This document shows positions 9,426 through 48,269 of a stretch of DNA of 64,000 nt, one piece after another. Positions within the stretch are counted from its first letter, which is position 1, and the number at the start of each line of letters is the position of its first letter. A program made the position numbers and the translations under genes. The stretch lies in NCBI RefSeq assembly GCF_035084215.1, contig NC_090370.1, positions 26,288,001 to 26,352,000 on the forward strand. Reading direction: 5' to 3'. The notes beneath the pieces were generated by a model. The model did not search any database. It was not told the DNA's origin and saw only the letters and a list, made by a program, of their open reading frames with translations. This DNA comes from Heptranchias perlo. Lineage: Eukaryota.

Positions 9426-9800
9426 ATGCCTGAGGACAAGAAAGCAGCTCCCAAGAAGGGCGCCAAGAAAACCTTGAATAAAGCACCAGGCAAGGGCGGC
9501 AAGAAGCGGAGAAAGACGAGGAAGGAGAGTTACTCCATCTACATCTACAAAGTGATGAGGCAGGTTCACCCCGACACCGGCATCTCCTCCAAGGCCATGG
9601 GCATCATGAACTCCTTTGTGAACGACATTTTCGAGCGCATCGCGGGTGAGGCTTGCCGCCTGGCCCATTATAATAAACGCCACACCATCAGCTCCCGGGA
9701 GATCCAGACCGCCGTGCGCCTGCTGCTGCCCGGGGAACTGGCCAAGCACGCCGTGTCGGAAGGGACAAAGGCGGTGACCAAATACACCAGCTCCAAGTAA
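9426..9800 (+). CDS. H2B: Histone H2B (replication-dependent), 124 aa
   Basis: [15 protein letters not shown]...[26 protein letters not shown]...AVTKYTSSK; intronless; stem-loop downstream. Confidence 0.97.
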
Positions 9801-9836
9801 AACTCCACAATGAACTGAAAAAAAATTATACACACA

Positions 9837-9852
9837 GGCTCTTTTAAGAGCC
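9837..9852 (+). terminator. Histone 3' stem-loop (H2B)
   Basis: GGCTCTTTTAAGAGCC+ACCCA; downstream element is the variant GAAGACGCTG. Confidence 0.95.
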
Positions 9853-9944
9853 ACCCACAGTCTCTCTGAAGACGCTGTACCGACACCTCTGTATGGAATC
9901 ATTTTACTGTAAATAGTTTGATACTAACTTTCTCTCGAAAACGG

Positions 9945-10133
9945 CAATTGATACGAGCTCAAATGCTAAATTTAAATCTGAGATAGATAGTTAATTGGCA
10001 ACGAAAGGTATTAATGGATACGGGCCAAAGGCAGGTATCTGGAGTTAGATCACAGATCAGCCATGATCTTATCAAATGGCGGAGCAGGCACGAGGGGCTG
10101 AATGGCCGACTCCCTGTTCCTATGTTCTTGTGC
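9945..10133 (+). mobile_element. CR1 LINE 3' end
   Basis: GATCAGCCATGATCTTATCAAATGGCGGAGCAGGCACGAGGGGCTGAATGGCCGACTCC and TTCCTATG-type tail. Confidence 0.85.
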
Positions 10134-10772
10134 TTTTGAAATTTCTGTTGAAATCTGTAAGATTCTCTCAATCGCTGCCCGGTATAATCTGTGGATCGCT
10201 TTTTTATTTAATCCCAATAACCAAAAACGTGTCCCTGATCCTCTCATTCCCGCTAATATTCCGCCCCTTCCCCCGCATCTGCCCCGTCAGAGCCGTTTTA
10301 AGGCGGTGGATTACACTTCAGTCATTTCTTTCTCCTTTTCACCTTTGTTTGTTCATTATTCGGGAATATCACTTTCAGAACCGCAATCCTTTGTAAAGCA
10401 GCATTCCCGAAAGGCTGTTCACACCGAGTGCAGAACAGTCTAAAGACTCTGTCACTGTTCGACTTCTTACACCAGGAGTCGCGGCTCCGGTTTCGATCGC
10501 GCTGCAGCTCCTGTGAACAGGGATCAATCCACAATCTGTTGTTTGTTAATTTTACAAAGATTGAGCTGGAATCTGTCCCGTTACAAAATGGGGCTTTATT
10601 CCCGCCCGATTGAAAGCGAACGGTGAATGAAGCCGGATTTTAACCGGATTGGAAAAGATTTTGGAAGTTGTGACGGGAAATGTGGAGTAACAGAGTAAAA
10701 GGAGAGAGATTTTTAAATCTTTGTCTTTACGCGACATTATTTACTAAATCCGCTTCTTGTGTTGGAAATATA

Positions 10773-11400
<628 letters not shown>

Positions 11401-11430
11401 AGCGGCCAAGATTTAATCTGATAACCCAAA

Positions 11431-11471
11431 GGCTCTTTTCAGAGCCACCCACTGTATCTATGAAAGGGCTG
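11431..11471 (+). terminator. Histone stem-loop plus purine-rich HDE (H2A)
   Basis: GGCTCTTTTCAGAGCC (11431-11446) ACCCA ... GAAAGGGCTG. Confidence 0.95.
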
Positions 11472-11927
11472 ATTACTGTCTGAAGAGAGTCAGGTATTAA
11501 TTTAATAAGGACTTGATTCCGATTCGAGAACTAACAATAACTTGTTGATCACAAATGATCCAGATCGGTCTGTTGAAGTACTCGCTTCCGGACAGCAGAT
11601 GTCGCCAACCTCCAATAGATTGATATTTGCAGTTTGTGTGGTGAATGAGACAAAATATCAAAATTGCCATTAAACTGGGCAGGTGGGACACAGAAATACC
11701 AGGGACGTTTGATCATCGGCATCAAGAGGCATTCTGTTGTGTTCCACCCAATATTATTTACAGTCTCATCCTCCGACAACACTTGCTCGGTCTGTGTTAT
11801 TTTACCCAGATTTGTATAGCAGAAGCTGACTGATGTGTTGATTATTGTGTCAGCGATTACTGAATCAGTGAATGACATTTGTCTGTTATTGGATGTGAGC
11901 GAGGGAATTATTCTGTTCCTGTGTCAG

Positions 11928-12014
11928 TTACGACTTCTTGCCGCCGTTGGCTGGTGCTTTACTGAAGGTTTTTTTGGCGCCCTTCTTGGGAGCTGTTTTC
12001 TTGTCCTCAGGCAT
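11928..12014 (-). pseudogene. 3'-truncated H2B (27 codons of N-tail, then Ser-stop)
   Basis: Reverse strand reads [28 protein letters not shown]-stop; H2B 5' UTR and proximal promoter at 12015-12150. Confidence 0.9.
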
Positions 12015-12154
12015 TTTCAAACTCAATTTCAGACCCAGAAATGACACAAATCCGCTCCGAGCTCGGATTCAATCGGCAGCCGCACAGCCCTATGCTAATG
12101 AGGGATGGGTGAAGGCAATGATTGTGATTGGACGGATGAGAGTGATGCCACCTG

Positions 12155-13032
12155 ACATAGAAAATATGAGTAAGAGTCGGCCATTCCGCCCTTCGGGTCT
12201 GCTCCGCCATTCAAAATGATCATGGCTGATCGTCGAACTCAGTACCCTGTTCCCGCTTTTTCCCCATATAGAAACATAGGAACAGGAGCAGGCCATTCAG
12301 CCCCTCCTGCCTGCTCTGCCATTTGATAAGATCATGGCTGATCTGTGTTCTAACTCCATGTACTCGCCTTTGGCCCATATCCCTTAATACCTTTGGTTGC
12401 CAAAAAGCTATCCATCTCAGATTTAAATTTAGCAATTCAGCTAGTATCAATTGCCGTTTGCGGAAGAGAGTTCCAAACTTCTACCACCCTTTGTGTGGAG
12501 AAATGTTTTCTAATCTCGCTCCTGAAAGGTCTGGCTCTAATATCCCGTGATCCCTTCAGCAGTATGAAATATATCTATCTCATTCTTGAATACATCTAAT
12601 GACTTGGCCTCCACTGCCTTCTGTGGTAGAGAATTCCACAGGTTCACCACCCTCTGAGTGAAGAAATTTCTCCTCATCTCGGTTCCAAATTGCATACCCC
12701 GTATCCTGAGACTCTGACCACTGGTTCTGGACTCTGCAGCCATCGGGAACATCCTCCCTGCATTTAGTCTGTCTAGTCCTGTTAGAATTTTATATGTTTT
12801 GAAGAGATCACCTCTCATTCTTTTAACTCGAGTGAATACTGGCCGAGTCGACCCAATCTCTCCTCATACGTCAGTTCTGCCATCCCAGGAATCAGTCTGG
12901 TAAACCTTCGTTGCACTCCCTCCATGTCAAGGACATCCTTCCTCAGATAAGGAGACTAAAACTGCACACAATACTCCAGATGTGGTCTCACCAAGGCCTG
13001 TATAACAGCAGTAAGACATCCCTAAAGACATC
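12155..13032 (-). mobile_element. 5'-truncated CR1 LINE with a second CR1 3' end nested at ~12268-12540
   Basis: RGDLFKTYKILTGLDRL...FFTQRVVNLWNSLP; two 3' UTR/tails; outer element TTCCCCATA|TATCCC split by the inner one; interrupts the H2B promoter, which resumes at ~13045. Confidence 0.9.
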
Positions 13033-13333
13033 CCTGTTTCTTTCACTCTCTGATTGATTTCTTCAGCTATCCAATCAGATTTCGTACCTGCCACCAATCA
13101 CAAACACGCTCACACTGCACATTGTCCGGTTTCAGCAATTTGTTCCGAACTGTTGCAGTTCTGCTTCCGGCCAGTAGATGTCCCCAAACCCCGGGACAGT
13201 GAAGTTTGCAGATGAGAGAGGGACAGAACAGAAACTAATTCTTCACATTATATTGCACGAGTGGGATTTAGAAAAACTGGGAATGGAGACGAGCTGCAAG
13301 TACATTTTGTTAGACCAAACATTAGTTGTAATG

Positions 13334-13823
13334 ATGTGGAGATGCCGGTGATGGACTGGGGTTGACAATTGTAAACAATTTTACAACACCAAGTTATAGT
13401 CCAGCAATTTTATTTTAAATTCACAAGCTTTCGGAGGCTTCCTCCTTCCTCAGGTAAATGTTCAGGAGCTCCTTGAAGCCTACGCATTTATACATATAGA
13501 ACAATACATGGTGTTTACAGACTGCCCCTGCAACTGCCCGTTGCCAAGTCAATCACCGTGTTCAGACAGAGAGGTGTCACCTGCAGAACCCCCGAATACA
13601 CATTCAACAAAAAAACAAACAGGAAAAAAAAACAGAGAGAGGCAGAAACATCAGGAAGGCAGAGAAAGCCAGCAAATGACCCATTATATTAAAAACAGAT
13701 AACATTTGTTCGCTGGTGGGGTAACGTGTAGCGTGACATGAACCCAAGATCCCGGTTGAGGCCGTCCTCATGGGTGCGGAACTTGGCTATCAATTTCTGC
13801 TCGACGATTTTGCGTTGTCGTGT
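13334..13823 (-). mobile_element. Penelope-like element 3' fragment (GIY-YIG C-terminus plus terminal repeat) with 9-bp TSD
   Basis: Minus strand TRQRKIVEQKLIAKFRTHEDGLNRDLGF; GTTGTAATG at 13325-13333 and 13824-13832; empty site ATTAGTTGTAATGCTGTG at ~28782. Confidence 0.85.
13420..13458 (-). ncRNA. Minimal hammerhead ribozyme motif (Penelope-type)
   Basis: TTTAC-CTGAGGA-A-GGAGG aag CCTCC-GAAA-GCTT-GTGAA. Confidence 0.7.
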
Positions 13824-14299
13824 GTTGTAATGCTGTGTTACATTGTTATAATTGATTTAGGGGGTTATAGTCAATACTGAGGAAGACTGCAACAAAGTAA
13901 GTTTGCAGAACGGCCGTGTAAATGACCATTGAATTTCAATATAGAAAGGTGTGAGCTGGTGCATTTTGCCAGGGGAACAAGTTGGCCACATCCTGCTTGG
14001 AAAATTAGAGTCTAAACGGGGGAGAGGAGTAATGTAAATCGAGCTGAGAAATCAGAGAGAAATACTGCGCAATGTACAGTGAAATATAACGGGGAAAATT
14101 CACAACTATTGAATAAGTAAAACAAAACTTTATTATGAATAAATTGTCCTCATTTTTCACGATCAAAATGTGCAAAAATACGAGAGTAGAAGTTACAGAC
14201 AGAAACTTTCCTCACATTGCACATTGTCCTGATTCTGCAACCACGAGACAAAGTGAATTTGTTCCACTCTTTTACAGTTCTCGCTTACGTCCAGTAGAG

Positions 14300-17200
14300 G
14301 CCAGTCTCTGGTACTGAATATGAGAGTGGGGTTTATTCTGTATTTGTTGGTATCTGGTACTGTACATGAGTGTGGGATTTATTCTGTATCTGTCTGTCTC
14401 TTTTACTGTGTGTGAGTGTGGGGTTTGCTCTGTATCTGTCTGTCTCGGGTACTGTATGAGTGTGGGGTTTATTTTGTATTTGTCTGTCTCTGGTACTTTA
14501 CATGAGAGTGGGATTCATTCTGCATCTCTCAGTCTCTTGTACTGTGTGTGAGTGTGGGATTCATTCTGCGCCTGTCTGTCTATGGTACTGTGTGTGAGTG
14601 TGGGGTTTATTCTGTATCTGTCTGTCTCAGGTACTGTGTGTGATTGTGGGGTTTTATCTTTATCTCCTGTCACTTGTACTGTATATGAGTGTGGGATTTA
14701 ATCTGTATCTGACAGTCTCTGTTACTGTACATGAGTGAGGGGTTTATTCTGTATCTGTCAGTCTCTGGTACTGTCCGTGATTGTGGGATTCATTCTGTAT
14801 CTGTCAGTCTCGGGTACTCTATGCGAATGTGGGATTTATTCTGTATCTCCCTGTCTCTGGTACTGTGTGTGCATGTGGGATTCATTCTGTGCCTGTCAGT
14901 CTCTGGTACTGTACATGTTTGTGGGGTTTATTCTGTATCTTTCACTCTCTGGTACTGTAAGCCAGTGTGGGCTTTATTCTGAATCTGTCTGTCTCCGGTG
15001 CGATGTGCGAGTGTGGGGTTTATTCTGCATCTGTCAGTCTCTGATACTATATATGAGTGTGGGTTTTATTCTGTATCTGTCACTCTCTGATACTATATAT
15101 GAGTGTGGGACTAATTCTGTAACTGACATTCTCTGGTACTGTCTGTGAGTATGGGATTCATTCTGTATCTGTCATTCTCTGCTACTTTATCTCAGTGGGA
15201 TTCATTCTGCAATTCAGTCTCTGAGGCAATGTGCAAGTCTGGATTCACTCTGTATTCTGATTTCAGTTTATATTATTTTATTTGAAACTATATCTTTAAT
15301 ACTTTAAAGTACATGCTTTTTTGTCGAGTGTTTAATTTGTAAATATTGACACACTTATGGATTTTCTTTAATCAAACAATGTGTGTGAGTTTTGGAGTAG
15401 TGTTACATCTTAATCTCTGAACTCTATTGTGAATGACAATGTACCTTTCAATCTGTTCACGGTGAAATTATTGGACTGGTATATAATGTGTAACTCAGTC
15501 TATAATAATGGAATTAATTCTGTATCTCAGTCTGATACTGTATGAGATTTTTGGACTGGTGTGTAACATGTAGCTCAGTGCATGCTAATGGAATTGATGT
15601 TGTATCTTTGAGTCTGATACGGTATGAAATTGTTCGACTGCTATGTAACGTTTTGCTCAGTCTGCACTAATCGAATTCAAACATTATCTTTCAATATGAC
15701 ACTATAAGATTTTTGGACTGGCTTGTTATGTGTAACTCAGTCTGCAATAATGTGACTGAGATTCATTCTGTATCTGTCAACCTGTGGTACTGTGTGTGAG
15801 TGTGGGATTAATTCTAAAAACGTCAGTCCCTGGTACTGTATGCAAGTGAGATTCATTCTGTATCTGTCTGACTGTGGTACTTTGTGATTCATTCTGTTCC
15901 TGTCAGTCTCTGGCACTGTGTGTGAATTTGGGATTCATTCCATATCTGTCAGTCTCTGATGCTGTATGTGAGTGAGACATTCATTCCGTTTCCATCAATC
16001 TCTGATACTGTCTTTGCGTGATATAAATTCTGTATCTGCCAGTCTGTGCTACTGTCTGTGAGTGTGGGATTTGTTCGGTATCTATCAATCACTGGAACAT
16101 TGTGTGAGTGTGAGAATCATTCTATTTGTCAGTCTCTGGCACTGGATCTGAGTATGAGATTCATTCTTTATCTGTATCTAATTTGTATCTCAGTTTAGAA
16201 TATGGCGTTCAAAACTGTATCTTTCATACCTAAATGTATAAATAATTTTTCCCAGTATTTAAGTGGTAGATAATCATATACTTTAAAATGTGATGCTGTA
16301 GGTTATAATCAGAGAATGAGTGCACTTTTTGGGCTACTCTTAAATCTGCTTCGATGTGAACACAACTGTGATTTCGTGCATCTTCCAAACTGATATGGTG
16401 GCATTTTTGAACTTGTATATAATGTGTAGGTCAGTCTGCATGAATGGAATACTGTATATTTCAGTCTGAATCAGTATCAGATTTTTTTTGTAGTGGTTTA
16501 TAATATGTAGCTCAATCTGCACTAATGGAATTGATACTGTATCTTTCAATCTGACACTGAGATTTTTGGACTGGTACGTAATTTGTAACTCAGCCTGCAC
16601 GAATGTAGGTGACTGTGAGATTCACTTTGTATCTCTCACTCCGTGATACTGTTTAGGATTCATTCTGTGTCTGTCAGTTTCCAGTATTGCATGTGGGTGT
16701 TGAATTCATTTTAAATATGCAATTTCTCATACTGTATGTTTGTGTGGGATTGAATCAGTCATCTGGTACTCTATATGATTGAGAGATTAATTCTGTATCT
16801 GTAAGTCTCTGGTACTGTGTGTGAGTGTGGGTTTCCGTCTTTTTATACAGTCTCTAATATTGTGTGTGTGTGTGTGTGTTGAATTCATTATATATGTGCA
16901 GTTTCTCAAACTCCAAGTTTGCAATTCATTCTGTCTCTCTCAGTCTCTGGTACTGTGTGAGTGTGGGATCCATACTTTATCTGCGAGTATCTGGTACATT
17001 ATGAGAGTGTGGGACTCATTCTGTATCTGTCAATTCTGGTACCATATATGAGTGCGGGATTCATTCTGTGTCTGTCTATAATTATTCTCTCAGATTATAT
17101 TGTGGCATACAATACTGTAGCTTTAATATGTTTAAATAGTTTTTCTCATTATTTAATTGGTAAATATGGATTAACTTTAGGATTTGGTGCTGGACGTTTT

Positions 17201-17480
17201 TATTCAGATAATTTGTGTGCTTTTTGGACCACTATTAAATCTATATTTCTTTGTAATATTGTGAATGATAATATATACTTCAAACTGAAAGTGATTTTTG
17301 AATTGGTACATAATGTGCAGCTCAGTCTGTACTATTGTAATCGATACTGTGCCTTTCAATCTAATATTATATGAGATTGTTGGACTGGTATGTAATGTTT
17401 ATCTCAGTCTGCACTTATAGAATTGATACTGTATCTTTACATCTCATACAATGAGTGTATTATAAACTGGTTTCTAATTT
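14300..17480. repeat. 46-bp and 78-82-bp satellites, inverted relative to 1-3608
   Basis: GAGTGTGGGATTCATTCTGTATCTGTCAGTCTCTGGTACTG units; GATTTTTGGACTGG units. Confidence 0.85.
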
Positions 17481-18599
17481 GTTTCTCAGGTTACACTGTC
17501 ACAGCATTTCTCAATCTGATAATGTACATGAGTTTTGGACTTGCCTGCAGTTTGTTTCTCATGATACACTATTTGAATCGATACTGCATGTATTAAACTC
17601 ACATGTGAGAGTTCTGGGCTAGTATTCAATTGGAATCTCGAGGGACATCATTGGGGTTCATTCTGTACCTTTGAATCGGGTACCATGTGTGATTTCTATC
17701 TGGTATTTAATTCGGAGCTAATGTTGCCCTATTGTGACATTGAAACAGTGCCTTTCAATCTGAAAGTGTGATTTTGGACTGGGATTTTTGTATCTTCCTG
17801 TCAGCGGGACTGAGTTCGGGGGAAATGGAAACAGCGTCTGCCTCACCTGCTCTGTCTGACTGTTGGATTGAAAATGTGTCTCACGAACTTGGGATCAGTG
17901 TGGGAACTGATGACCTGTCTGTGTCTCTGTGAGTGATAATGTACCTACTGTTTGTGAGAAGGAGCTGGCCGCACTGTTCCTTCTGCCTCGGGTGGAGGAA
18001 ACATCACATTTATTCTGGGTCGTTCAAGGATTTGCCTGTAGAAAGAAAATTATATCTTGTTACTCAGGAACAGGTGAGGTCGAAAATACAAAAGTGATCA
18101 ATTTAATATCTCTGTTAATGATCATTTTGAATATCCACAAGTGAAAACCAGTGCTACAAAGAGTGTCAGTATCTAACTCCACTGCAGTACTGCAGCACTC
18201 AGCTTCTGTATACCAGGTGTGTTGGGCTGTTTCATAACAATTTAGTGACATCCAGAAAAAACCCAACCCCTGCACTGATCCATGAATGGGACTACCCGAT
18301 GGGGCAGGGACCTTTGTACAGGTCAGCTTTCTAATCCCCTCTCCCATGGGACAAACCGTTCAACCGAAACCAAACAGCCGCTGTTTAAATTGTGTCCTTC
18401 ACACTTCTCAACTGGTGCCTTCAATTGATGCTCTTTGTCTCACTCCCCACATCCTTACTGTCCGGCTCTGTTTCCACTGTTCACTGTCCAATAACAATAA
18501 ACAGAGTGAGACTGGAACGAAACCAGGAACAATTCACTACTGGTTTGGGGAGAGAAAGTAGCAATGATTTTAAATAGCAGGTTCGTCCTATTCTGTCTC

Positions 18600-19000
18600 C
18601 CTTCCCCTGGACACACCCTGTACACACACAGCCCGAGAATGACCTCTCCCTTCCCCCGCTCACTCCATGTTCCGGGACCAGTTCCTGATCCACTCCGCCT
18701 CTTACAAACAGCCCCCGGACTCCCCCTGACCTTCCCCCGGACTCAATGCCGATCTCTGAGCCCATCTGCGGACACGGTCCCGAAGCGATGAGCTGCTGTA
18801 ACGAGGCTGCTCTTTGCTCCCTTCCCCCGGGGGCCGTGATCTCTCCATTCCCGGCTGTTTTTAACCATCTTCTTCCGCTCACTGAGGGAATGGCGCCCAC
18901 AGGCCGAGCTGGGGGAGGGGAGCGCGCATGCGCTCTTCTGCTCACCAGCAAGCAGCGCTGGGGCCGGGGCTGAGTCACGCATGCGCAGATATCTGGTTTA
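18600..19000. promoter_or_regulatory. CpG-rich island with two NRF1-type GCGCATGCGC motifs and TGAGTCA
   Basis: GCGCATGCGC 18924-18933; TGAGTCACGCATGCGCA 18971-18987; duplicated at 33900-34320. Confidence 0.55.
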
Positions 19001-19729
19001 ATTCCCAATACAAAAATCGATGGAAACTTTCCCCAATTGGAATTTTTCAGAGTCTGAGCAAAGGAAGTGGGGGAAAGGTCAGAGGGAATGGGGTCCACAG
19101 GCAGTGCAGGAACAGGCACCAGAATGGGAAACAGATGGGATTCCACCGGTGCCGAACGCTGGAATCCAGACTGACTTTACAATCTCCAACTATTAAACGA
19201 GATGTTTCCATCCCTGCTGTTTCTCTCGGTATCTTTTGATGGTAAAGGTTCAATCAGAGATAACTTGGGCGGCTGTGGAATGAGCCAATGGGTTCTGTTC
19301 ATTCTTGGTTCCTCTACTGATAAAGTAACGCGTGAACCCGAAACTGGAGGGAGGATTTCTCAAACCAATCCTGGAGAAACATGGGAGGAAAGTGGGACTC
19401 GGTGTATTTGCTGGGTCTGTGCAGGATGAATATCTGACGGCCACAGTCCCAGTTTATTTCAATCGGAGTGAAACTCTCGGTCACTGAGAGTAATACTGAA
19501 CGGCCCTCTGCTGCAAGATTACAGAGGGTACAATATGCAAGAGAGGATTAAATGTGTGACACTGTCCCTGAGAGTGGGATTAATAACGTGCCTGTCTCTG
19601 GAATAAGATCAGTTCGAGATGAGACTGCATCTTCTGTCATTCAACCTTGGAATAGCAATTGGAATGGAGTGATTCCCTATTTGTTACTGGGTGAAAACCG
19701 TTCATTACAGCTCAGTTTCTCTGTCTCTC

Positions 19730-20065
19730 TTGTACTTTATATGGAGGTGCGATACTGTTATTGAGCATGATACAGACACACTGATGGGAAGTGTGAGACT
19801 GATACTGTGCCTGTCTGTATCTCTCTCTCTCTAGCGGTGTACATGAAGCTGCGATAATGTTTACTGAGCGTGAAACGGACACATTGATGGGATGTGTGAG
19901 ACTGATTCTGCGTCTGTCTGACTGTGTCTCTGTCTGTCCGTTTATCAGCCGGTCCGTCTCTCTCTCTCTCTCTCTTTAGTTCTGCACATCAATGCGGGAC
20001 ACTGTTACTGAGCGTAATGTAGACCCACTGATGGAATGTGAAAGACTGATTCTGTGTCTGTGTGC
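19730..20065. repeat. Three degenerate ~110-140-bp tandem units with CT microsatellite spacers
   Basis: GATACTGTTA(C/T)TGAGC...CACTGATGGGA..GTGAGACTGAT repeated three times; related copies at ~35085-35190. Confidence 0.6.
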
Positions 20066-20606
20066 TGTTGGTGAGACGATTACTCTCCCTTCTACTGTAT
20101 ATGAGCCGGTCTGACGGTGCATTTATCCGCCGAAAAGTAAAGGTGGCGAGAAACAGCCTGTAACAGTCTGACTCCGGACTGTCTGTGGGTGTTGAATTTA
20201 TTCAGTAACTCGCCGTCTCTGGGTGTTGAGAATGGGATGGATCGGACGCCAGTTACTATTGCCTGTCAGTCAGTTTAGCAGGAGAAGCAAACACAGAGAG
20301 ACTGGAGGAGCCCAGAGCGGATAATTTGAATTTTCAACTTAACCAAACATATTTCTGTGTGCGAACAATACAATAATGTAAAAGCAGATATGGATTATCA
20401 CAGCCAGAGCTGTGATTGGCTCCTGTCCCTGAATCTGGAGACCAGAGACTGTGAGGAGCGCCGGCCTCAGAGTGTTTAACAGTTACTGAGCTGGGAAACT
20501 ACAACCAACCCCCGAGAATCCGCAGCACAGGCCGAGCGGGGAGGAAAGCTTGTCCCGGGAATTGTCAATCTGGCGAACAGTTTGTCCTGTGAATGTACAG
20601 ATGTGA

Positions 20607-20810
20607 TGTGGAGATGCCGGTGATGGACTGGGGTTGACAATTATAAACAATTTTACAACACCAAGTTATAGTCCAGCAATTTTATTTTAAATTCACAAGC
20701 TTTCGGAGGCTACCTCCTTCCTCATCGTTCACCTGAGGAAGGAGGTAGCCTCCGAAAGCTTGTGAATTTAAAATAAAATTGCTGGACTATAACTTGGTGT
20801 TGTAAAATTG
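20607..20810. mobile_element. Penelope-like fold-back insertion with 13-bp TSD
   Basis: Perfect inverted arms 20647-20724 / 20734-20811; TGTACAGATGTGA on both sides. Confidence 0.85.
20728..20766 (+). ncRNA. Minimal hammerhead ribozyme motif
   Basis: TTCAC-CTGAGGA-A-GGAGG tag CCTCC-GAAA-GCTT-GTGAA (stem I TTCAC/GTGAA, palindromic AAGCTT stem III). Confidence 0.75.
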
Positions 20811-21232
20811 TGTACAGATGTGAACATTGTGTCAGAGAGAGTGTGTTCAATGGGCGGGCGGTTTAGATTAATGCCACTGTGTTTGTGTGGCCGGTCTCAT
20901 CGCCGGATGTCCGAGTCCCTTTTGAGTAAAATTTTAAAAAAATCCCTGTCAAAGCATCGCCTTCCTCCCCTGCCGAGACCCGAAGTGAAAATTAAAGGTA
21001 CGGTTTTAGTTCAATTCAAGATTTCAGCCGAAAAACAGAAATCATGTCAGCGATCGGGTGAGAGAGCGCGATCAGTGCAGCAATGAAACGGGTTTAAATC
21101 GAAACTGGTGCTTTTAATTCCGGTGAAAGTTTTTCGACAGCAAACATTCCGGTGTTGGAGATGGGAAGGGGCTAGTCTGGGACTCTGGAGTGCCCGATTA
21201 TAATTAGAATCGGGTAGTTTAAGAGGAGAGAG

Positions 21233-21305
21233 AAACACAGAGTGGCTGGAGGTGCCGAGAGCTGACAGCAGGGTGTCTCCGCCCCGTCCGCTCTGGGCCT
21301 TTAAG
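21233..21305 (+). promoter_or_regulatory. H1 promoter: H1/AC box AAACACA, GC box, TTTAA TATA-like
   Basis: AAACACA 21233-21239, CCGCCC ~21279, TTTAA ~21300. Confidence 0.65.
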
Positions 21306-21383
21306 TTGCTCTGTGCCGCCGCCTCTCGTTTCATTTCTGACCCAGCTCTGACTGTCAGAGAGATTTTCTTCAGAGTCCCGGAC

Positions 21384-22025
21384 ATGACAGATACTGCAGC
21401 CGCCGAAACCGCACCTCCCGCCGCCGCTCAAACCAATGCTCCGAAGAAGAAGAAGGCGGTTCACCGACCCAAGACAGACGGTCCCAAATTGGGCGAACAG
21501 ATCCTCAAGATTGTGGCGGATTGCAAGGATCGCAAGGGGTTTTCCCTGGCCGCGATAAAGAAGGTTCTGGCCACCAAAGGCCTGGATGTGGAGAAGCACC
21601 GGACCCAGATCAAATTAAGTATCAAGAGAAATGTGGAAAAAGGCTCCCTGGTGCAGATCAAGGGCACGGGCGCCTCGGGCTCCTTCAGAGTCGCTAAGAA
21701 GGAAGCCCAGGAAAAAGTGGGAAAGAAGGTGAAGAAACAAGGAACCAAGAAATCTCCCGGAAAGAAACCAGCGGCCAAGAAACCAGCGGCCAAGAAACCA
21801 GCGGCCAGGAAATTAACGGCCAAGAAACCAGCGGTCAAGAAAACAGCTGTCAAGAAAACAGCTGTCAAGAAATCGACCACAAAGAAGGCGGCGAAATCAC
21901 CAATTAAGAAGAAAGCGGCTGTGAAGAAGCCCAAGACCCCAAAGCCAGTGAAGGCGAAGGCGAAGAAGGTACAAAATCCGAGCGCCAAGCCCAAACCGAA
22001 GAAAGCAGCAGGCAAAAAGAAGTAA
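21384..22025 (+). CDS. H1: Linker histone H1, 213 aa
   Basis: MTDTAAAETAPPAA...winged-helix core DRKGFSLAAIKK...KGTGASGSFRV, Lys/Ala/Pro tail with SPKK-like and KKPAA repeats. Confidence 0.95.
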   Translation: MTDTAAAETAPPAAAQTNAPKKKKAVHRPKTDGPKLGEQILKIVADCKDRKGFSLAAIKKVLATKGLDVEKHRTQIKLSIKRNVEKGSLVQIKGTGASGSFRVAKKEAQEKVGKKVKKQGTKKSPGKKPAAKKPAAKKPAARKLTAKKPAVKKTAVKKTAVKKSTTKKAAKSPIKKKAAVKKPKTPKPVKAKAKKVQNPSAKPKPKKAAGKKK

Positions 22026-22061
22026 AAAATCAAGTGCAACTTGTGACCATCTGAACCCAAC

Positions 22062-22102
22062 GGCTCTTCTCAGAGCCACCCACGTCTCTCAGAAAAGAGC
22101 TG
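22062..22102 (+). terminator. Histone stem-loop plus HDE (H1)
   Basis: GGCTCTTCTCAGAGCC ACCCA ... AGAAAAGAGCTG. Confidence 0.95.
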
Positions 22103-22756
22103 ATCCCGGAATCAGATGATTCCTGTCCCGGGGCCGGGCTCAGATTTCAGATAGAAATCATTTACAATAAACCCAGGGTCCAGGTGACTCGCTGACATTC
22201 GCTCCCCCCGCCCCACTCCCACTGTCTGATATAAAATAAAGAGAATGGGATACCCGGGCCGGGCCTCACTGTAACTGGGGGCGTGTTCACCTCCAGTCCC
22301 AGTTCATTCTTTTTCTCACAGATTCATGGCCAGGGTCCGTGACAGGGGAAAACTGGCGGAGATCCGCCGCTATCACAATTCAAACCCCAACACATGAGAT
22401 TCTCCAAATCAGCTGGAATAATGTGTTTGTGAACTGCTGAATCCGTCTGGGAGGGAATGTGTGGGAGATAGAATCGGGTCTTGGACGGAAATGGAAGCAG
22501 GCGGGTTGACTAGTTACAGAAGGGACTGTATTTAGGCAGGAATATTACTGGCTGATAATTGTAACGGGGCTTATTTAAAAGCTCCGGGTTTCTGTAAATC
22601 CTTGAATATGAAGCCCGAGTCTGTAAGGGTTTGTGCGGAGCGCTGTGTTTCGGTTCTATTATCGATGAACGGTTTGAAATTGGCGGGTGGAGAAAGCTGG
22701 AGTTGGAGCTGGAAGATCAGAGACCGCTCTCCGCCCTGTCCATCACTCTGACTCTC

Positions 22757-22948
22757 TCCTCCCCTCTCTGTTTAATTTCTCACTCTGTCTCCGCCCCTCC
22801 CTGTTTAATCTCACTCTGTCTCCTCCCCTCCCTGTTTAATATCTCACTCTGTCTCCTCCCCTCCCTGTTTAATTTCTCACTCTGTCTCCTCCCCTCCCAC
22901 TTTCACTCTGTGCATGTTTCAGTCAGGTCGGGGCAGTCTGCATAAAAA
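22757..22948 (+). promoter_or_regulatory. H4 promoter: ~33-bp tandem pyrimidine-rich repeat, H4 subtype element TTCAGTCAGGTCG, CATAAAA
   Basis: CTCACTCTGTCTCCTCCCCTCCCTGTTTAAT x~4; element resembles H4 site II (TTCAATCTGGTCCG). Confidence 0.6.
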
Positions 22949-22984
22949 AGGGAACCAGCACGAGTTCGCTGTTCATTTCAGTGA

Positions 22985-23305
<321 letters not shown>

Positions 23306-23340
23306 ACGACTCGACCCTTTCCAACCAAACACAAAACAAA

Positions 23341-23381
23341 GGCTCTTCTAAGAGCCACCCACCGCCTCACAGAGAGAGCAG
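23341..23381 (+). terminator. Histone stem-loop plus HDE (H4)
   Basis: GGCTCTTCTAAGAGCC ACCCA ... AGAGAGAGCAG. Confidence 0.95.
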
Positions 23382-24057
23382 TGACCTGGGAAGGGGGAGT
23401 GGGACGATCTCGGGGTGGGGAAGTAGTTTCCGATATTCTATTAATATGGGGAGATTTCTCCAGCACTCGTAACAGGGAGATCAGAAAAACGGCCGGGGTT
23501 CTCGGCCATCCCGAGAGAAGGAGCGGAATTCCCGGTTTCACGGTATAAATGAACAGGCGGGGATGCAGAGTCTTTCCACAGACATTACATTCTTCACTCA
23601 GAGTAAAATCCCTCCTCACTCCCTCTCCCGCTGTGTTCTCTCTGCTCGGTGTTTATTTCTTGCCCTCATTCAAATATCAGTTCGATGTGAAGTTTCTGTT
23701 TGAGGAGCCGTTCACCGGGCCGGAACTGGCGGGATTTTTGAAATCGAAGCTGGACTTTGTCCCGCTTCCGACGGAAAGCAATGACCGGGACTTTATTCCC
23801 GCCCGTTTACAGACAGGTCAGAGAATGAACCGGAATGTGAAACAGCCTGAGATTTGTGCTGACGAGTAGGAAATAATGGAGATTATAAAGAGAGAGATTC
23901 TTAAATTGCTGGAGGGAAATGAGATTTTCTTCAAACTGTTATCTGATGCTCTGAAATTGGCGGGCTTTTTGAAATTGATGATTAATTTCAGCTCAGCCAA
24001 TTGGGGCTCAAGACCTCCCGCCGTTTCGTTCTGACTGTCAGACTTCGGTTCAAACCT

Positions 24058-24729
<672 letters not shown>

Positions 24730-24762
24730 ACCCGACACGCCTTCAGCACCAAGTGCAACAAA

Positions 24763-24803
24763 GGCTCTTTTCAGAGCCACCAAATCAGCAAAGGAAAGAG
24801 CTC
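24763..24803 (+). terminator. Histone stem-loop plus HDE (H3)
   Basis: GGCTCTTTTCAGAGCC ACCAA ... AAGGAAAGAGCT. Confidence 0.95.
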
Positions 24804-26051
24804 TGATCTCTGGGGTTGAAATCGCAGGGCCGTGCAGTTCACAGAAATTTGATGAAATGGGAAATGCATAAAGGGGAGGGAGCGGATGTCAGACGCAAGG
24901 CCTGACAATCTGTTGGCCCATCATAACAGCAGAGAGATGGGAACAGAGCCGATCTACGTTTTATGGCAGAAACAGCTGCTGTTCATTTTGGACGAAGATT
25001 CAGCACCAGAGAGGAGTGCCAATTCCAGACTGACCAACATGAGGAATTTGAAACGGAGACAGTTTCATTTTCACACACACGCAGGACTGGAGGGAGGTGA
25101 ATTCCACCAGACTGACTCTCATCACCACCAGTGCCTCATTCGGACAGAGAAAGTTCTGGCAAACAGCTGCAGAAAGTTCTGATTCCGACCCCACTCTTTC
25201 ACATGAGGTACATACACCCCCAGTGTCAAACTTACTGGGACATATGTACAGAGAGGGACTCGTGGAAAGCACGAGAGATACAAGTTCTCATTTCCAATGT
25301 CGTGTCAGCTTGGCTCGGTTGGAAACACTCGAATGTCGGAGTCAGGGGTTTCAAAGTTCAAGCCTCACTCCAACACTTTACTGGACATTTGAGTCCAGCA
25401 CTGAAGGACAGGTGCAATCGGACGGGACCTGAAACCCATGCTGGATGTAAGGAATCAGACTCGGATCATATAACGTTTCAGTCTATTCTCCCCTGCAGAT
25501 ATAGTGGCAGAGGCTGTTTCAATGCAACTCGAACCAATAGATCGAAAGGCAGTGTGTCTTGCTCTCTATCAGCGCTAGAATCAGAAGCAGTGTAAAACAT
25601 TCGTGTTACATTCACTAACACTCGTAACTGATACAGGGTCAGAATCAATCCCTCAATCACATCCAACAACACGGGCAAATTTAACTCACATTCTTGATTC
25701 AGCAATCGCTGACACAATATTCAACACATCAGTCAGCTTCTGTTGCACAAATCTGGGTAAAATAACACAGACCGAGCAAGTGTTGTCGGAGGATGAGACT
25801 GTAAATAATATTGTGTGGAACACAACAGAATGCCTCTTGATGCCGATGATCAAACGTCCCTGGTATTTCTGTATCCCACCCGCCCAGTTTAATGACAATT
25901 TTGATATTTTGTCTCATTCACCACACAAACTGCAAATATCAATCTATTGGAGGTTGGCGACATCTGCTGTCCGGAAGCGAGTACTTCAACAGACCGATCT
26001 GGATCATTTGTAATCAACAAGTTATTGTTAGTTCTCGAATCGGAATAATAA

Positions 26052-26563
26052 TTCATAGAGTTCATAGAGTTATACAGCACGGATACAGGCCCTTCGGCCC
26101 ATCGTGTCCGCGCCGGCCATCAGCCCTGTCTGCTCTAATCCCATATTCCAGCATTTGGTCCGTAGCCTTGTATGCTATGGCATTTCAAGTGCTCATCCAA
26201 ATGCTTCTTGAATGTTGTGAGGGTTCCTGCCTCCACAACCCTTTCAGGCAGTGAGTTCCAGACTCCAACCACCCTCTGGGTGAAAAAGTTCTTTCTCAAA
26301 TCCCCTCTAAACCTCCCGCCTTTTACCTTGAATCTATGTCCCCTTGTTATAGTACCCTCAACGAAGGGAAAAAGCTCCTTAGTATCCATCCTATCTGTGC
26401 CCCTCATAATTTTGTACACCTCAATCATGTCCCCCCTCAGCCTCCTCTGCTCCAAGGAAAACAAACATCGCTGAAGCGCTCCAGCCCTGGTAACATCCTG
26501 GTGAATCTCCTCTGCACCCTCTCCAAAGCGATCACATCCTTCCTGTAGTGTGGCGACCAGAAC
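26052..26563 (-). mobile_element. Young 5'-truncated CR1 LINE
   Basis: FSLEQRRLRGDMIEVYKIM...WNSLPERVVEA; (ACTCTATG)n tail; absent from the homologous site at ~11512. Confidence 0.92.
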
Positions 26564-26641
26564 TTATTAAATTGAGTCCTTATTAAATTGATTCCTGACT
26601 CTCTTCAGTCAGTAACAAGCCCTTTCAGAGATACAGTGGGT

Positions 26642-26657
26642 GGCTCTGAAAAGAGCC
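26642..26657 (-). terminator. Histone stem-loop (H2A, minus strand)
   Basis: Reverse complement GGCTCTTTTCAGAGCC; HDE GAAAGGGCTTG. Confidence 0.95.
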
Positions 26658-26687
26658 TTTGGGATATCAGATTAAATCTTGGCCGCT

Positions 26688-27152
<465 letters not shown>

Positions 27153-27930
27153 TCATCTGATTGGTTGTTCCTTATTACACCTCATTTGCCTATTTCATTA
27201 ACCAATCAGATAGCTGGAAATTCGAAGAGGGCGCGATTTACCGGCCTCAACGGTCAGACCAGGAATTTTATGAATTACAAAAAGCCCGCCAATTTCAGTG
27301 CAGTGAAGGATCGGATTTCGATCAATGTCGCCCTGAGCACAAGATTTTAAACCCGTTCTTTTTATCTTGTCTTATTCAGCGCTCCCCGTCACTAATCGCT
27401 CGCTCTGTTTTAAAATCTGCTTTAAATTATGGCTCATTCGACCATCGCTTTCAAACGCCACCGGACCGGACTAAAGCCCCATTCACAGCATTCCGTGAAA
27501 GGACACATTTGAATTTAGTGTTTAGAAAAGTGAAACGTTACAGATTGGTCCCTTCTCAGAGCCGGGAGTGCTTCTGTGAAAAGAGGGACCCGGACAGAGC
27601 TCTCATTCTGCCCCGATTCCGCTGTTACTACAAGGGGTGGGGTTACTGTTAATCTGGGGACTTTCACGTCAGTCCATAAATATTTCAGAAACTGCATTCA
27701 TAGAACGGAATTGCTGAGGGGGTCATAAAGGGGATGAGAGGCCAGAATAGTAATGCTTTAAGAACAAAACAAATAGGAAGGAGCGGATGATAAACTCGTG
27801 TTCATTTTTGGGGCCAGGGATTTGAACGGGGTCGTTCGAGTCACTTTTCGATTGGAATAATAATATTGCTGCAATAAAATGATCCTTAGTAATATATAGG
27901 AAATGCAGCTCTTTCAGAGAGGTTGTGGGT

Positions 27931-27946
27931 GGCTCTTAAAAGAGCC
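27931..27946 (-). terminator. Histone stem-loop (H2B, minus strand)
   Basis: Reverse complement GGCTCTTTTAAGAGCC; HDE GAAAGAGCTG. Confidence 0.95.
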
Positions 27947-27976
27947 GTTGTTTTTTTTTCACTTCATTGTGGAGTT

Positions 27977-28351
27977 TTACTTGGAGCTGGTGTATTTGGT
28001 CACCGCCTTTGTCCCTTCTGACACGGCGTGCTTGGCCAGTTCCCCAGGCAGCAGCAGGCGCACGGCGGTCTGGATCTCCCGGGAGCTGATAGTCGCCCGC
28101 TTGTTGTAATGGGCCAGGCGGGAAGCCTCACCTGCGATGCGCTCGAAAATATCGGTCACAAAGGAGTTCATGATGCTCATGGCCTTGGAGGAGATGCCGG
28201 TGTCGGGGTGAACCTGCTTCATCACTTTGTAGATGTAGATGGAGTAACTCTCTTTCCTCGACTTTCTCCGCTTCTTGCCGCCTTTGGCTGGTGCTTTACT
28301 CAAGGTTTTCTTGGCGCCCTTCTTGGGAGCTGCTTTCTTGTCCTCAGGCAT
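27977..28351 (-). CDS. H2B: Histone H2B, second copy, 124 aa
   Basis: [27 protein letters not shown]...AVTKYTSSK. Confidence 0.97.
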
Positions 28352-34320: not shown

Positions 34321-36243
34321 GTGGAAACTTTCCCCAATTGGAATTTTTCAGAGTCTGAGCAAAGGAAGTGGGGGAAAGGTCAGAGGGAATGGGGTCCACA
34401 GGCAGTGCAGGAACAGGCAGCAGAATGGGAAACAGATGGGATTCCACCGGTGCCGATCGCTGGAATCCAGACTGACTTTACAATCTCTCACTATTCAACT
34501 GGATGTTTCCATCCCTGCTGTTTCTCTCGGTATCTTTTTATGGTAAAGGGGCAATCAGAGATAACGTGGACGGCTGTGAAATGAGCCAATGGGTTCTGTT
34601 TATTCTTGGTCCCTTTACTGATAAAGTAACGCGTGAACCCGAAACTAGAGGGAGGATTTCTCAAACCAATCCTGGAGGAACATGGGAGGAAAGCGGGAAT
34701 CGGTGTATTTGCTGGGACTGTGTAGGATTAATATCAGACAGCAACAGTCCCAGATTAATATAATCAGAGTGAAACTCTCGGCCACTGAGATTAATAACGA
34801 ACGGACCTGATCTGCAAAACCGAATATGGTACAACAGGCAAGAGAGGGTTACATTCGGCCCACATTGTTTTGTCACTCTCTGTACTGTCCCTGAGTGTGG
34901 GATTAATAGTGTGTCCGTCTCTGGTACATCAGTGAGAGATAAGAATGCATCTTCTGTCTCTCCAACGGGATTTTCTGGATAAAACGCAACTTTACAGGTC
35001 GGTCTGGAACTGATACTGTGGCACTGTGCTTCTCCGCTCGCTCTGTCACCGTATCTGTCTCCCTTTCTCTCTCACTCTCTGGTGCTGTATATGAAGGTTG
35101 GATACAGTTATTGAGGGTGATATGAACACACTGATAGGAAGTGTAAGACTGACAGTCTCTCTCTCAAGTGCTGGACATGAAGGTGGGATACTGTCTGATA
35201 TAAAACAGAGAGAATGGGGTGTCCGAGCCTCACTGTAACTGGGGATGTGTTCGGCTCCACTCCCAGTTCATGGTCATTTTCTTTTCACAGATTCAGGGCG
35301 AGAGTCTCTGTGAGACGGTAACACTGGCGGAGAAACTCCGCGTCATAACTCAAACCCCAACATATGAGATTCTCCAAATGAGCTAGAATAAGGTGTTTGT
35401 AAAACGCTGAACCCGTCTGGGAGGGGATATGTGGGGAGATAGAATCGGGTGTGGGACTGAAATGGAAGGAGACGGTTTGACTTGTTATCGAAGGGACTGT
35501 ATTTCGGCAGGAATATTACTGCCTGTTAATTGTAACGGGTCTTATTTAAAAGCTCCGGGTTCCTGGGAATCCTTGAACATGAAGCCCGAGTCTGTAAGGG
35601 TTTGTGCGGACCGCTGTGTTTCGGTTCTATTATCAATAAACGGTTTGAAATTGGCGGGTGGAGAAAGCTGGAGGTGGAGCTGGAAGATCAGAGGCCGCTC
35701 TCTGCTCTGTCCATCACTCTGACTCCTCCCCTCCCGCCCTCTCTATTTGATCCCCATATGCAAACAACGCGGGTAGGTGGACTCGAAACACGGTTTACTC
35801 GTCAAGAAGGCGAAAGGCGAATAATATTTCTGATCTCCTGGGCACCAGGCCGTTCACTGTTATTTGTTTCTGTACAGAGTTACATTTCAGTGATTCCCCA
35901 GTGATTTTGATGAGTTATTTGAATAATCCAACAAAATAGAACAGAAACGGAGCGAAGCGCTGAATCCCGCAGATAAAGAAAGATTTGTCGAGCAGTTCTG
36001 GTGATGCTTTACGAGCCCAGCATGGCAAGTAGTTTAAATAAATACAACAAATCTGGTGATGTGTGGACTGGGGTCCATAAGTTACCGTTTAAAGTATCGG
36101 AATGTGGTCGGTGCCCCGACTCCAGTCCCATTAATACCTCATCTCGTCCACAACGAGAAAAAAGCAGCTCAAAGCAACACTGGTAGCATGATATCAGCGT
36201 CTCCCTTCAGACAGTAACCAGCCCTTTCATAGATACAGTGGGT

Positions 36244-36638
<395 letters not shown>

Positions 36639-37236: not shown

Positions 37237-37307
37237 GCGATGGTGGTATAGTGGTGAGTACAGCTGCCTTCCAGCAGTTGATCCGGGTTCGATTCCCGGC
37301 CATCGCA
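37237..37307 (+). tRNA. tRNA-Gly(TCC)-like gene with a 1-nt anticodon-loop deletion (probable pseudogene)
   Basis: GCGATGGTGGTATAGTGGTGAGTACAGCTGCCTTCCA-GCAGTTGATCCGGGTTCGATTCCCGGCCATCGCA; A and B boxes intact; T6 at 37325-37330. Confidence 0.85.
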
Positions 37308-46986: not shown

Positions 46987-47196
46987 CGCCGACCATTTCT
47001 GAATCCAAACAGTAGAAATAAAGTCACTTTGACACTATGTCCTGCCCGTGCACCCAGATCGACAATATTGAAAATGTGGAGTCAATTTCTGAAAGCAAAG
47101 TAATTTAGGGATTTCTGTTCCATCCGACTGTTCGAAACGGTCGGGTGCAAAACAGTTCGGGCGCACGTCGGACAACTTTTCACCCAGCGAGTAAAA

Positions 47197-47286
47197 CGAC
47201 CGCGGCAGGACTCGAACCTGCAATCTTCTGATAACAACTCGAGTTAATACCGAAGTCAGACGCCTTATCCATTCGGCCACGCGGCC
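47197..47286 (-). tRNA. tRNA-Arg(TCG) with a 17-nt intron (47233-47249)
   Basis: GGCCGCGTGGCCGAATGGATAAGGCGTCTGACTTCGG[TATTAACTCGAGTTGTT]ATCAGAAGATTGCAGGTTCGAGTCCTGCCGCGGTCG then TTTT. Confidence 0.93.
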
Positions 47287-48269
47287 GATGACGAATTGTT
47301 TCACCAAATGATCCTAAACGCTGGGCAGGGCTGGTTAATCCTCTGCTTGTCTCTTTCTCTTCCTTTCGCTTTGTTGATGTTGTTCATTTATTGTTTTTTC
47401 TCTTGCAGCAAGTTGGCTCCACTGTTTCCGACTGATCCGGAAACTGACAACTGAACTCCCGCTGGGTCTCCGAGAAACCTACAATCAGAATAAACAATGT
47501 TCAAATCTTTGATCAAAATGTTTCGCCTCCAATGCGAATCGCTTTCACACTCAGTCTGCAAAATAGAGTGAGGGGAAATGAAACAAAAGACAAATCGGTA
47601 AATTAAAAATGTACACGGAGAACAACACCGAGCGGAGAATGTGAACAGAATTTACTATCCAAGCCCGACGGGCCGAGTGGCCTCATCCTGTCCTGTAAAA
47701 TACGAACAATCCCCAATTCTGCTGGGTGAGATTATTATTTTCTGATTTTTTTTTTCTAAATATAAACGCGGACGGGGTCCCGCACCACGGGGAAAAGCGC
47801 TCAGTGTTAATGTTAATATTGAGCACGGTATTCTATCCGTGTAATAATAAAATCGCCGATTTCTTGCTATATATTCGACACAGTCCCTTGCTGTGTGTTT
47901 AATCAGGGCAGGGAATATTTTGCTGGTTTCGTGATATTCATTTTTCTGGAAATTAGTGAACTCGTCTCGAAACATGAGTTTTCCAGTTTCTGTTTCGCTC
48001 AATGGAGTTGAGGTGCAGATCAGCGATGAGCTGCTGTGACTCCGCCGCGCCGGTTTAACCGGAATTAGACGTTTCAGTGAAGTGAACCGTCTCAATCCGG
48101 TTTATTTCTTTATTTCTAACATTGTTTATTTTGCGTGGTAGATTTATCGAAATTTCATTCAGAGTTCAGTTGTCAGTTTTCTGATCAGTTGGAATCTGAA
48201 GAAGATAAAAATAAGGAAATAAAAACATTACAAAGGTCCAAACTCGAACTGATACAATCACCTTGTCTT

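Follow-up and report, generated by a model that had tools for sequence, protein, structure and literature searches.

The set of four intron-containing tRNA families documented in human and mouse is often taken as the rule for vertebrates. In human, introns are described only for Tyr-GUA, Ile-UAU, Arg-UCU, and Leu-CAA (PMC10275265), in keeping with the four spliced tRNAs counted in PMC12168002, and Arg-TCG was correctly placed outside this set in the original prediction that led to the present analysis. The splicing pathway, with the TSEN endonuclease and the RTCB ligase, is established in other systems (PMC10485636, PMC10275265), and human TSEN has been reported to require a pair between base 32 and intron base −3 for 3′ cleavage (10.1101/2020.08.03.234229). 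In human, tRNA-Arg-TCG-1-1 sits in the promoter of POLG (PMC5425787). Among other eukaryotes represented in GtRNAdb, introns at the same position are indicated for Arg-UCG and Pro isoacceptors by the axis order of a supplementary figure in which no vertebrate breakdown is visible (PMC12168002 SI Fig. S7). For sharks, abundant intron-containing tRNA loci are described in a preprint, whose available text names no isoacceptors; its Fig. 3A or supplements may already list them.

The window analyzed here is a 64,000-nucleotide stretch from the shark Heptranchias perlo (GCF_035084215.1, NC_090370.1, positions 26,288,001 to 26,352,000). On its minus strand, at 47286–47197, lies a tRNA gene made up of a 37-nt 5′ exon (positions 1–37; 47250–47286), a 17-nt insert between positions 37 and 38 (47233–47249), and a 36-nt 3′ exon (positions 38–73; 47197–47232). 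ARAGORN run with intron search identified it as tRNA-Arg(tcg) with a 17-nt intron, while the same program without intron search wrongly typed it as Tyr, and the Rfam tRNA model scored the gene at 58.4 bits (E 4.8e-10). Read in the sequence, the insert is unable to slide in either direction, so its placement at 37/38 is unique. The 5′ exon contains the A box (positions 8–19), C32 (47255), and the anticodon TCG (47253–47251); the 3′ exon has an intact B box and is identical to that of most other copies; and a Pol III terminator-like TTTT (47193–47196) lies immediately 3′ of position 73, the discriminator base. The A box, B box, and oligo-T run expected of a Pol III gene can be read in the sequence, with the T4 run being a short one. 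As judged by the Rfam score and the stems, the mature domain is intact, with every stem pairing except at 13–22, where a T13G change (47274) relative to nearly all other copies turns the pair into G.A. The exons had been described beforehand as those of an Arg-TCG gene with one D-arm change, with an insert exactly at 37/38 and a T4 terminator, and each of these readings proved accurate. Together, anticodon and body place the gene outside human families Tyr-GTA, Ile-TAT, Leu-CAA, and Arg-TCT. We consider it to be one copy of an amplified family of intron-containing tRNA-Arg(TCG) genes that is likely transcribed by Pol III and likely spliced by TSEN, a reading of the sequence to which we assign a probability of roughly 0.78. 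That the window copy itself yields a working tRNA is a more guarded proposition, which we hold to be somewhat probable.

The family was counted by searching the same genome with a junction-spanning pattern, the reversed pattern serving as a control. This gave 120 matches versus 0 for the control. An insert of 15–17 nt is present in 98 of the 100 matches listed, and the complete list for gaps of 0–4 nt (96 rows) holds only two TCG rows, which means that 118 of the 120 matches carry the insert, a copy count that may be inflated because unplaced contigs may duplicate haplotypes. A dead singleton, named beforehand as the outcome that would speak against the prediction, is therefore not what the genome contains: the insert recurs in those 118 matches, and their exons are conserved. 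Among the matches listed, the copies are found on contigs C49, C284, C402, C1286, C1313, and C1392, with a further copy on C21. The 5′ exon followed by A was matched 16 times, and only the gene at C37:9,707,738 among these lacks an intron. No second Arg-TCG body was found, all seven matches to a variant pattern being intron-bearing C49 copies. Of the two TCG rows without an insert, one, at C23:26,637,545 (L031), combines the body of an Arg-ACG gene with an anticodon switched to TCG and lies inside an Arg-ACG array on C23; the second is the C37 gene. One decayed variant of the intron-bearing family reads CCG (L063).

The C49 copies examined sit among histone genes, and the window is itself a histone cluster, with seven histone open reading frames and seven 3′ stem-loops. 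The replication-dependent genes H2B, H2A, H1, H4, H3, H2A, and H2B and their seven stem-loops lie at 9426–28351 and 36219–36264; the stem-loop at 36219 has no listed open reading frame of ≥95 amino acids beside it. Kilobase-scale blocks are common to the window and a neighboring unit. The upstream flank of the tRNA gene (47287–47560, minus strand) is likewise common to other cluster copies as part of the duplicated unit, and its last 40 nt are about twice as variable as the far flank. A further tRNA gene at 37237–37307 on the plus strand, which we take to be Gly-TCC-like, has an anticodon loop of 6 nt, one base short, and is repeated at L112:6615–6685; it is likely a duplicated pseudogene.

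In the window intron, G at −3 (47235) faces C32, and G at −6 (47238) faces C35. Counted by eye, G occupies −3 in 96 of the 98 introns among the matches listed; over the 36 stored intron types it is found in 35, as is G at −6. Since positions −1, +3, and +4 show no more variation than −3 does, shared ancestry may account for part of this conservation. Base −3 also tracks base 32 across families: C or T is matched with G in 64 of 65 Arg-TCG copies, T with A in 22 of 26 Pro copies, and G is found at −3 in all five Lys-TTT copies. Families with C at 32 (Arg-TCG, Lys-TTT, Arg-TCT, and Tyr) thus have G at −3, and Pro, with T at 32, has A. This cross-family match appears to be a stronger sign of constraint than the conservation of G(−3) inside Arg-TCG. 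Pairing probabilities were obtained by folding the precursor with the anticodon stem enforced and comparing the result with shuffled introns. The mean predicted probability of the C32:−3 pair is 0.27 over the 36 intron types versus 0.02 for shuffles; 13 of the 36 types exceed 0.3, and several subfamilies with a CGATG-bearing intron reach a predicted 0.5–0.6. For the window copy the value is 0.17 as compared with a shuffle mean of 0.02, a level that 11 of 300 shuffles attain, and the best predicted fold pairs C32 with G−6. The predicted anticodon-intron pair thus holds in that G(−3) can face C32, but it is not the dominant pairing predicted for this copy. Predicted values for seven Arg-TCT and Ile-TAT controls ranged from 0.00 to 0.96, and a low probability consequently neither proves nor excludes splicing. 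The unconstrained fold of the window precursor gave no cloverleaf (z −1.9) and was uninformative.

By the established pathways, transcription of the intron-bearing Arg-TCG genes by TFIIIC and Pol III would depend on the A and B boxes inside the gene and end at the T run. TSEN, measuring from the mature domain, would then use the C32:G−3 pair to cut the pre-tRNA, and RTCB would join the exons to give an ordinary CGA-reading tRNA. In its mature form this product would resemble that of the intronless gene linked to POLG (see below), differing by at most a few bases. The family is like human Tyr-GTA, Ile-TAT, Leu-CAA, and Arg-TCT in having a single short intron at 37/38, a pyrimidine-32:purine(−3) pair, and introns that vary within the family, and human Arg-TCT likewise mixes intron-bearing genes with one intronless gene (PMC10485636). 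It differs from the human families in anticodon and body and in copy number, with 118 copies here versus 5–13 there. The Arg-TCG introns are also not alignable to those of Arg-TCT or Ile-TAT in the same genome.

The insert contains a perfect 10-nt palindrome (47236–47245), as had been pointed out in the original prediction. Only 186 of 20,000 shuffles of the window intron (0.9%) produce a palindrome of this length, which might suggest a functional element such as a hairpin, a dimer, a protein site, or the footprint of a mobile insertion. That frequency is unremarkable among 36 variants, however, and the palindrome is confined to a subfamily: it is found in 10 of the 98 introns among the matches listed, in 11 of 71 stored copies, and in 2 of 36 types. 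A single substitution abolishes it in a sister variant, and the predicted fold of the window intron alone is 0.0 kcal/mol. A functional role is accordingly the least probable of all the readings considered here, and we judge the palindrome to be incidental.

Arg-TCG is not alone in this trait, since inserts at 37/38 were also found in the Pro and Lys-TTT genes of the cluster DNA sampled. A Pro pattern had 631 matches in the genome, 100 of which were listed in contig order (85 of these on C23); inserts of 17–19 nt are present in 91 of the 100 listed, across the AGG, CGG, and TGG isoacceptors. Scored by eye among the matches listed, 87 inserts have A at −3, while a single one has G there and 3 have T. 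Intron-bearing genes of all three Pro isoacceptors form an array on C23 (L194, L195, L231, and L262–L266) and also occur as dispersed copies. The nine intronless Pro genes among the matches listed are dispersed, and we rejected the idea that they are retrocopies because they are exon-perfect and eight of the nine have a T4 or longer run. Retrocopies of spliced Arg-TCG, which would be a sign of splicing, were looked for and none was found. For Lys-TTT, inserts of 12–13 nt at 37/38 with G(−3) are present in all five stored copies (L200:9686–9771, L235, L242, L248, and L223). Among the genes observed for Arg-ACG, Arg-CCG, Arg-CCT, Ile-AAT, Val, Gly, and Thr, none had an intron. Introns of different tRNA families cannot be aligned to one another. 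Eight intron-bearing isoacceptors were observed, which makes at least nine in the genome if Leu-CAA is assumed. Other tRNA genes are arrayed as well. Intronless Arg-CCG genes with an Arg-CCT-type body form an array at C11:5.6–8.1 Mb (L065–L083) adjoining CCT and Met genes, and only one Arg-CCG gene with another body was seen (L084). Seven strong tRNA-Sec copies form a tandem array at C43:12.02–12.03 Mb, with one more on C5, and these eight fit the shark genomes treated in section 6 of the Squalomix preprint.

Two Arg-TCG genes outside the clusters bear on the history of the family. The gene at C37:9,707,738 (L032), on the minus strand, is intact and intronless, has a T5 run, and is the only such gene found. 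The exonuclease domain of POLG (PF18136) begins at C37:9,713,675 on the plus strand, so that the tRNA gene lies head-to-head with POLG, about 6 kb upstream of the first exonuclease-domain exon. Its flanks are unrelated to those of the cluster copies, and this, along with the T5 terminator and the POLG neighbor, argues against a processed retrocopy. It is likely the orthologue of human tRNA-Arg-TCG-1-1, in which case the intron-bearing genes are paralogues. The exons of the window gene are one base off this intronless shark counterpart; the window gene differs from the human gene in its intron, its unrelated flanks, and its location in a histone cluster. Intron-bearing and intronless Arg-TCG genes thus coexist in the genome, and essentiality does not force splicing of the intron-bearing family. 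The second gene, at C21:56,838,583 (L033), is a lone intron-bearing copy flanked by two Ile-AAT genes. Its exons are 96% identical to those of the cluster copies and 99% identical to those of the C37 gene, but its diverged 15-nt intron is only 35% identical to the cluster introns. This intron retains bases complementary to the anticodon loop and shows a weak relationship to its cluster counterparts (5/200 shuffles), as does the near upstream flank (2/300). The C21 copy is a candidate for the oldest intron-bearing Arg-TCG copy. The 57 open reading frames examined for synteny around it gave retroelement domains, one C2H2 zinc-finger frame, and weak repeat matches, with no anchor for orthology.

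Because a perfect intronless Arg-TCG gene exists, it must be asked whether most copies with an intron are passengers, silent or never spliced, that were amplified with the histone units, the POLG-linked gene supplying all working Arg-UCG. Several features of the recent copies fit this idea. When 30 copies were chosen solely by their upstream flank, the exons (diversity 0.062 and 0.019) proved no less diverse than the flanks (0.044 and 0.035), and 7 of the 30 have both C32T and G37A along with additional changes, so the recent cluster copies include pseudogenes. These seven make up a degraded, amplified subclade (L154, L156–L159, L162, and L164). The recurrence of the Gly-TCC-like gene with its short loop in the Arg-TCG duplication unit, along with the kilobase-scale blocks shared with the neighbor, points the same way. 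Between subfamilies, however, exons are far more conserved than flanks. For ten representatives (45 pairs), identity is 0.95 in the exons, a value raised somewhat because the representatives were picked by an exact 22-nt exon pattern that fixes 22 exon bases, as compared with 0.70 in the intron, 0.81 in the upstream 150 nt, 0.73 in the upstream 40 nt, and 0.76 downstream. Variation is raised in the intron (pi 0.18) and in the last 40 nt of the 5′ flank (0.084) relative to the far flank (0.044), as has been described where tRNA loci are transcribed (PMC6130373), and this is, by analogy, an indirect sign that the family is transcribed. The exon-intact C21 copy, whose diverged intron retains its anticodon-pairing bases, and the joint change of bases 32 and −3 across families also argue against wholesale decay. 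A family of passengers is thus an unlikely account. Still less likely is an anticodon switch or the transfer of an intron out of another family that has one, such as Arg-TCT. Switches do occur in this genome, as in the Arg-ACG body reading TCG, and codon switching accounts for an odd tRNA intron in one yeast (PMC4090602, section 18), but the Arg-TCG body matches the intronless Arg-TCG gene (95–100%) and not Arg-TCT. Moreover, when the Arg-TCG introns are aligned to those of Arg-TCT (47/200), Pro (153/200), Lys (80/200), or Ile (196/200), the scores do not surpass those of shuffles; the single Tyr intron did better (5/200), with a low score and as one of nine comparisons.

For the functional family that we favor, the intron may have been retained or gained. 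We lean toward retention, in which the intron would be an old one that cartilaginous fishes preserved and the lineage to mammals lost, later multiplied by cluster duplication. A de novo gain in cartilaginous fishes, with Pro and Lys-TTT acquiring theirs independently, is compatible with function and is a less probable but serious competitor. An intronless gene next to POLG in both shark and human implies that the intronless form predates their split (PMC5425787), the near identity of the C21 and C37 exons favors a gain, yeasts provide documented cases of tRNA intron gain (PMC4090602, section 18), and Lys-UUU has a low position on a eukaryote intron-frequency axis (PMC12168002 SI Fig. S7). A gain would nevertheless need three separate events with unrelated intron sequences, one in each family, by a mechanism that is not established in eukaryotes (PMC4090602, section 18 part 1). 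When the 45 anticodons are read off the axis labels of intron frequency in eukaryotes, which we assume to be sorted by frequency, UCG, AGG, CGG, and UGG all fall within the first third, with UCG at 6th and 8th place on the axes (PMC12168002 SI Fig. S7). Another eukaryote also carries Arg-TCG introns at 37/38: a metagenome scan gave four matches, two of which are not tRNA and two of which (L180 and L181) are Arg-TCG genes with a different, non-shark body and introns of 21 and 23 nt unrelated to the shark ones. The high rank of UCG and this other eukaryote weigh toward retention.

Our results agree with the shark preprint in its many intron-containing tRNA loci, its tRNA genes among histone genes, and its shark-type tRNA-Sec number. 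Within the openly available literature, searched apart from GtRNAdb, we found no paper naming a vertebrate Arg-TCG intron. The paper supplements searched, other than file 9 of PMC11574265, held nothing on such introns in fish, and the same is true of the available portions of PMC8044555, PMC2888827, PMC4536317, PMC11574265, and PMC11408192.

Standard finders may mistype genes of this kind, as ARAGORN did with Tyr, and shark tRNA counts are affected as a result. A more speculative view, which we hold to be doubtful, is that the tRNA supply of sharks has two tiers. A small number of conserved single genes that lack introns (Arg-TCG by POLG and the nine exon-perfect Pro genes) would be joined by hundreds of amplified cluster genes (Arg-TCG, Pro, and Lys-TTT) with introns gained within vertebrates and their output gated by TSEN, perhaps in oocytes or embryos. 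If true, this would mean that tRNA introns arose de novo three times in a vertebrate lineage. Intron-bearing and intronless genes with the same mature tRNA provide a natural test of what a tRNA intron does, whether in modification, yield, or tissue control, and the same gene pairs bear on whether vertebrates lost or gained their tRNA introns.
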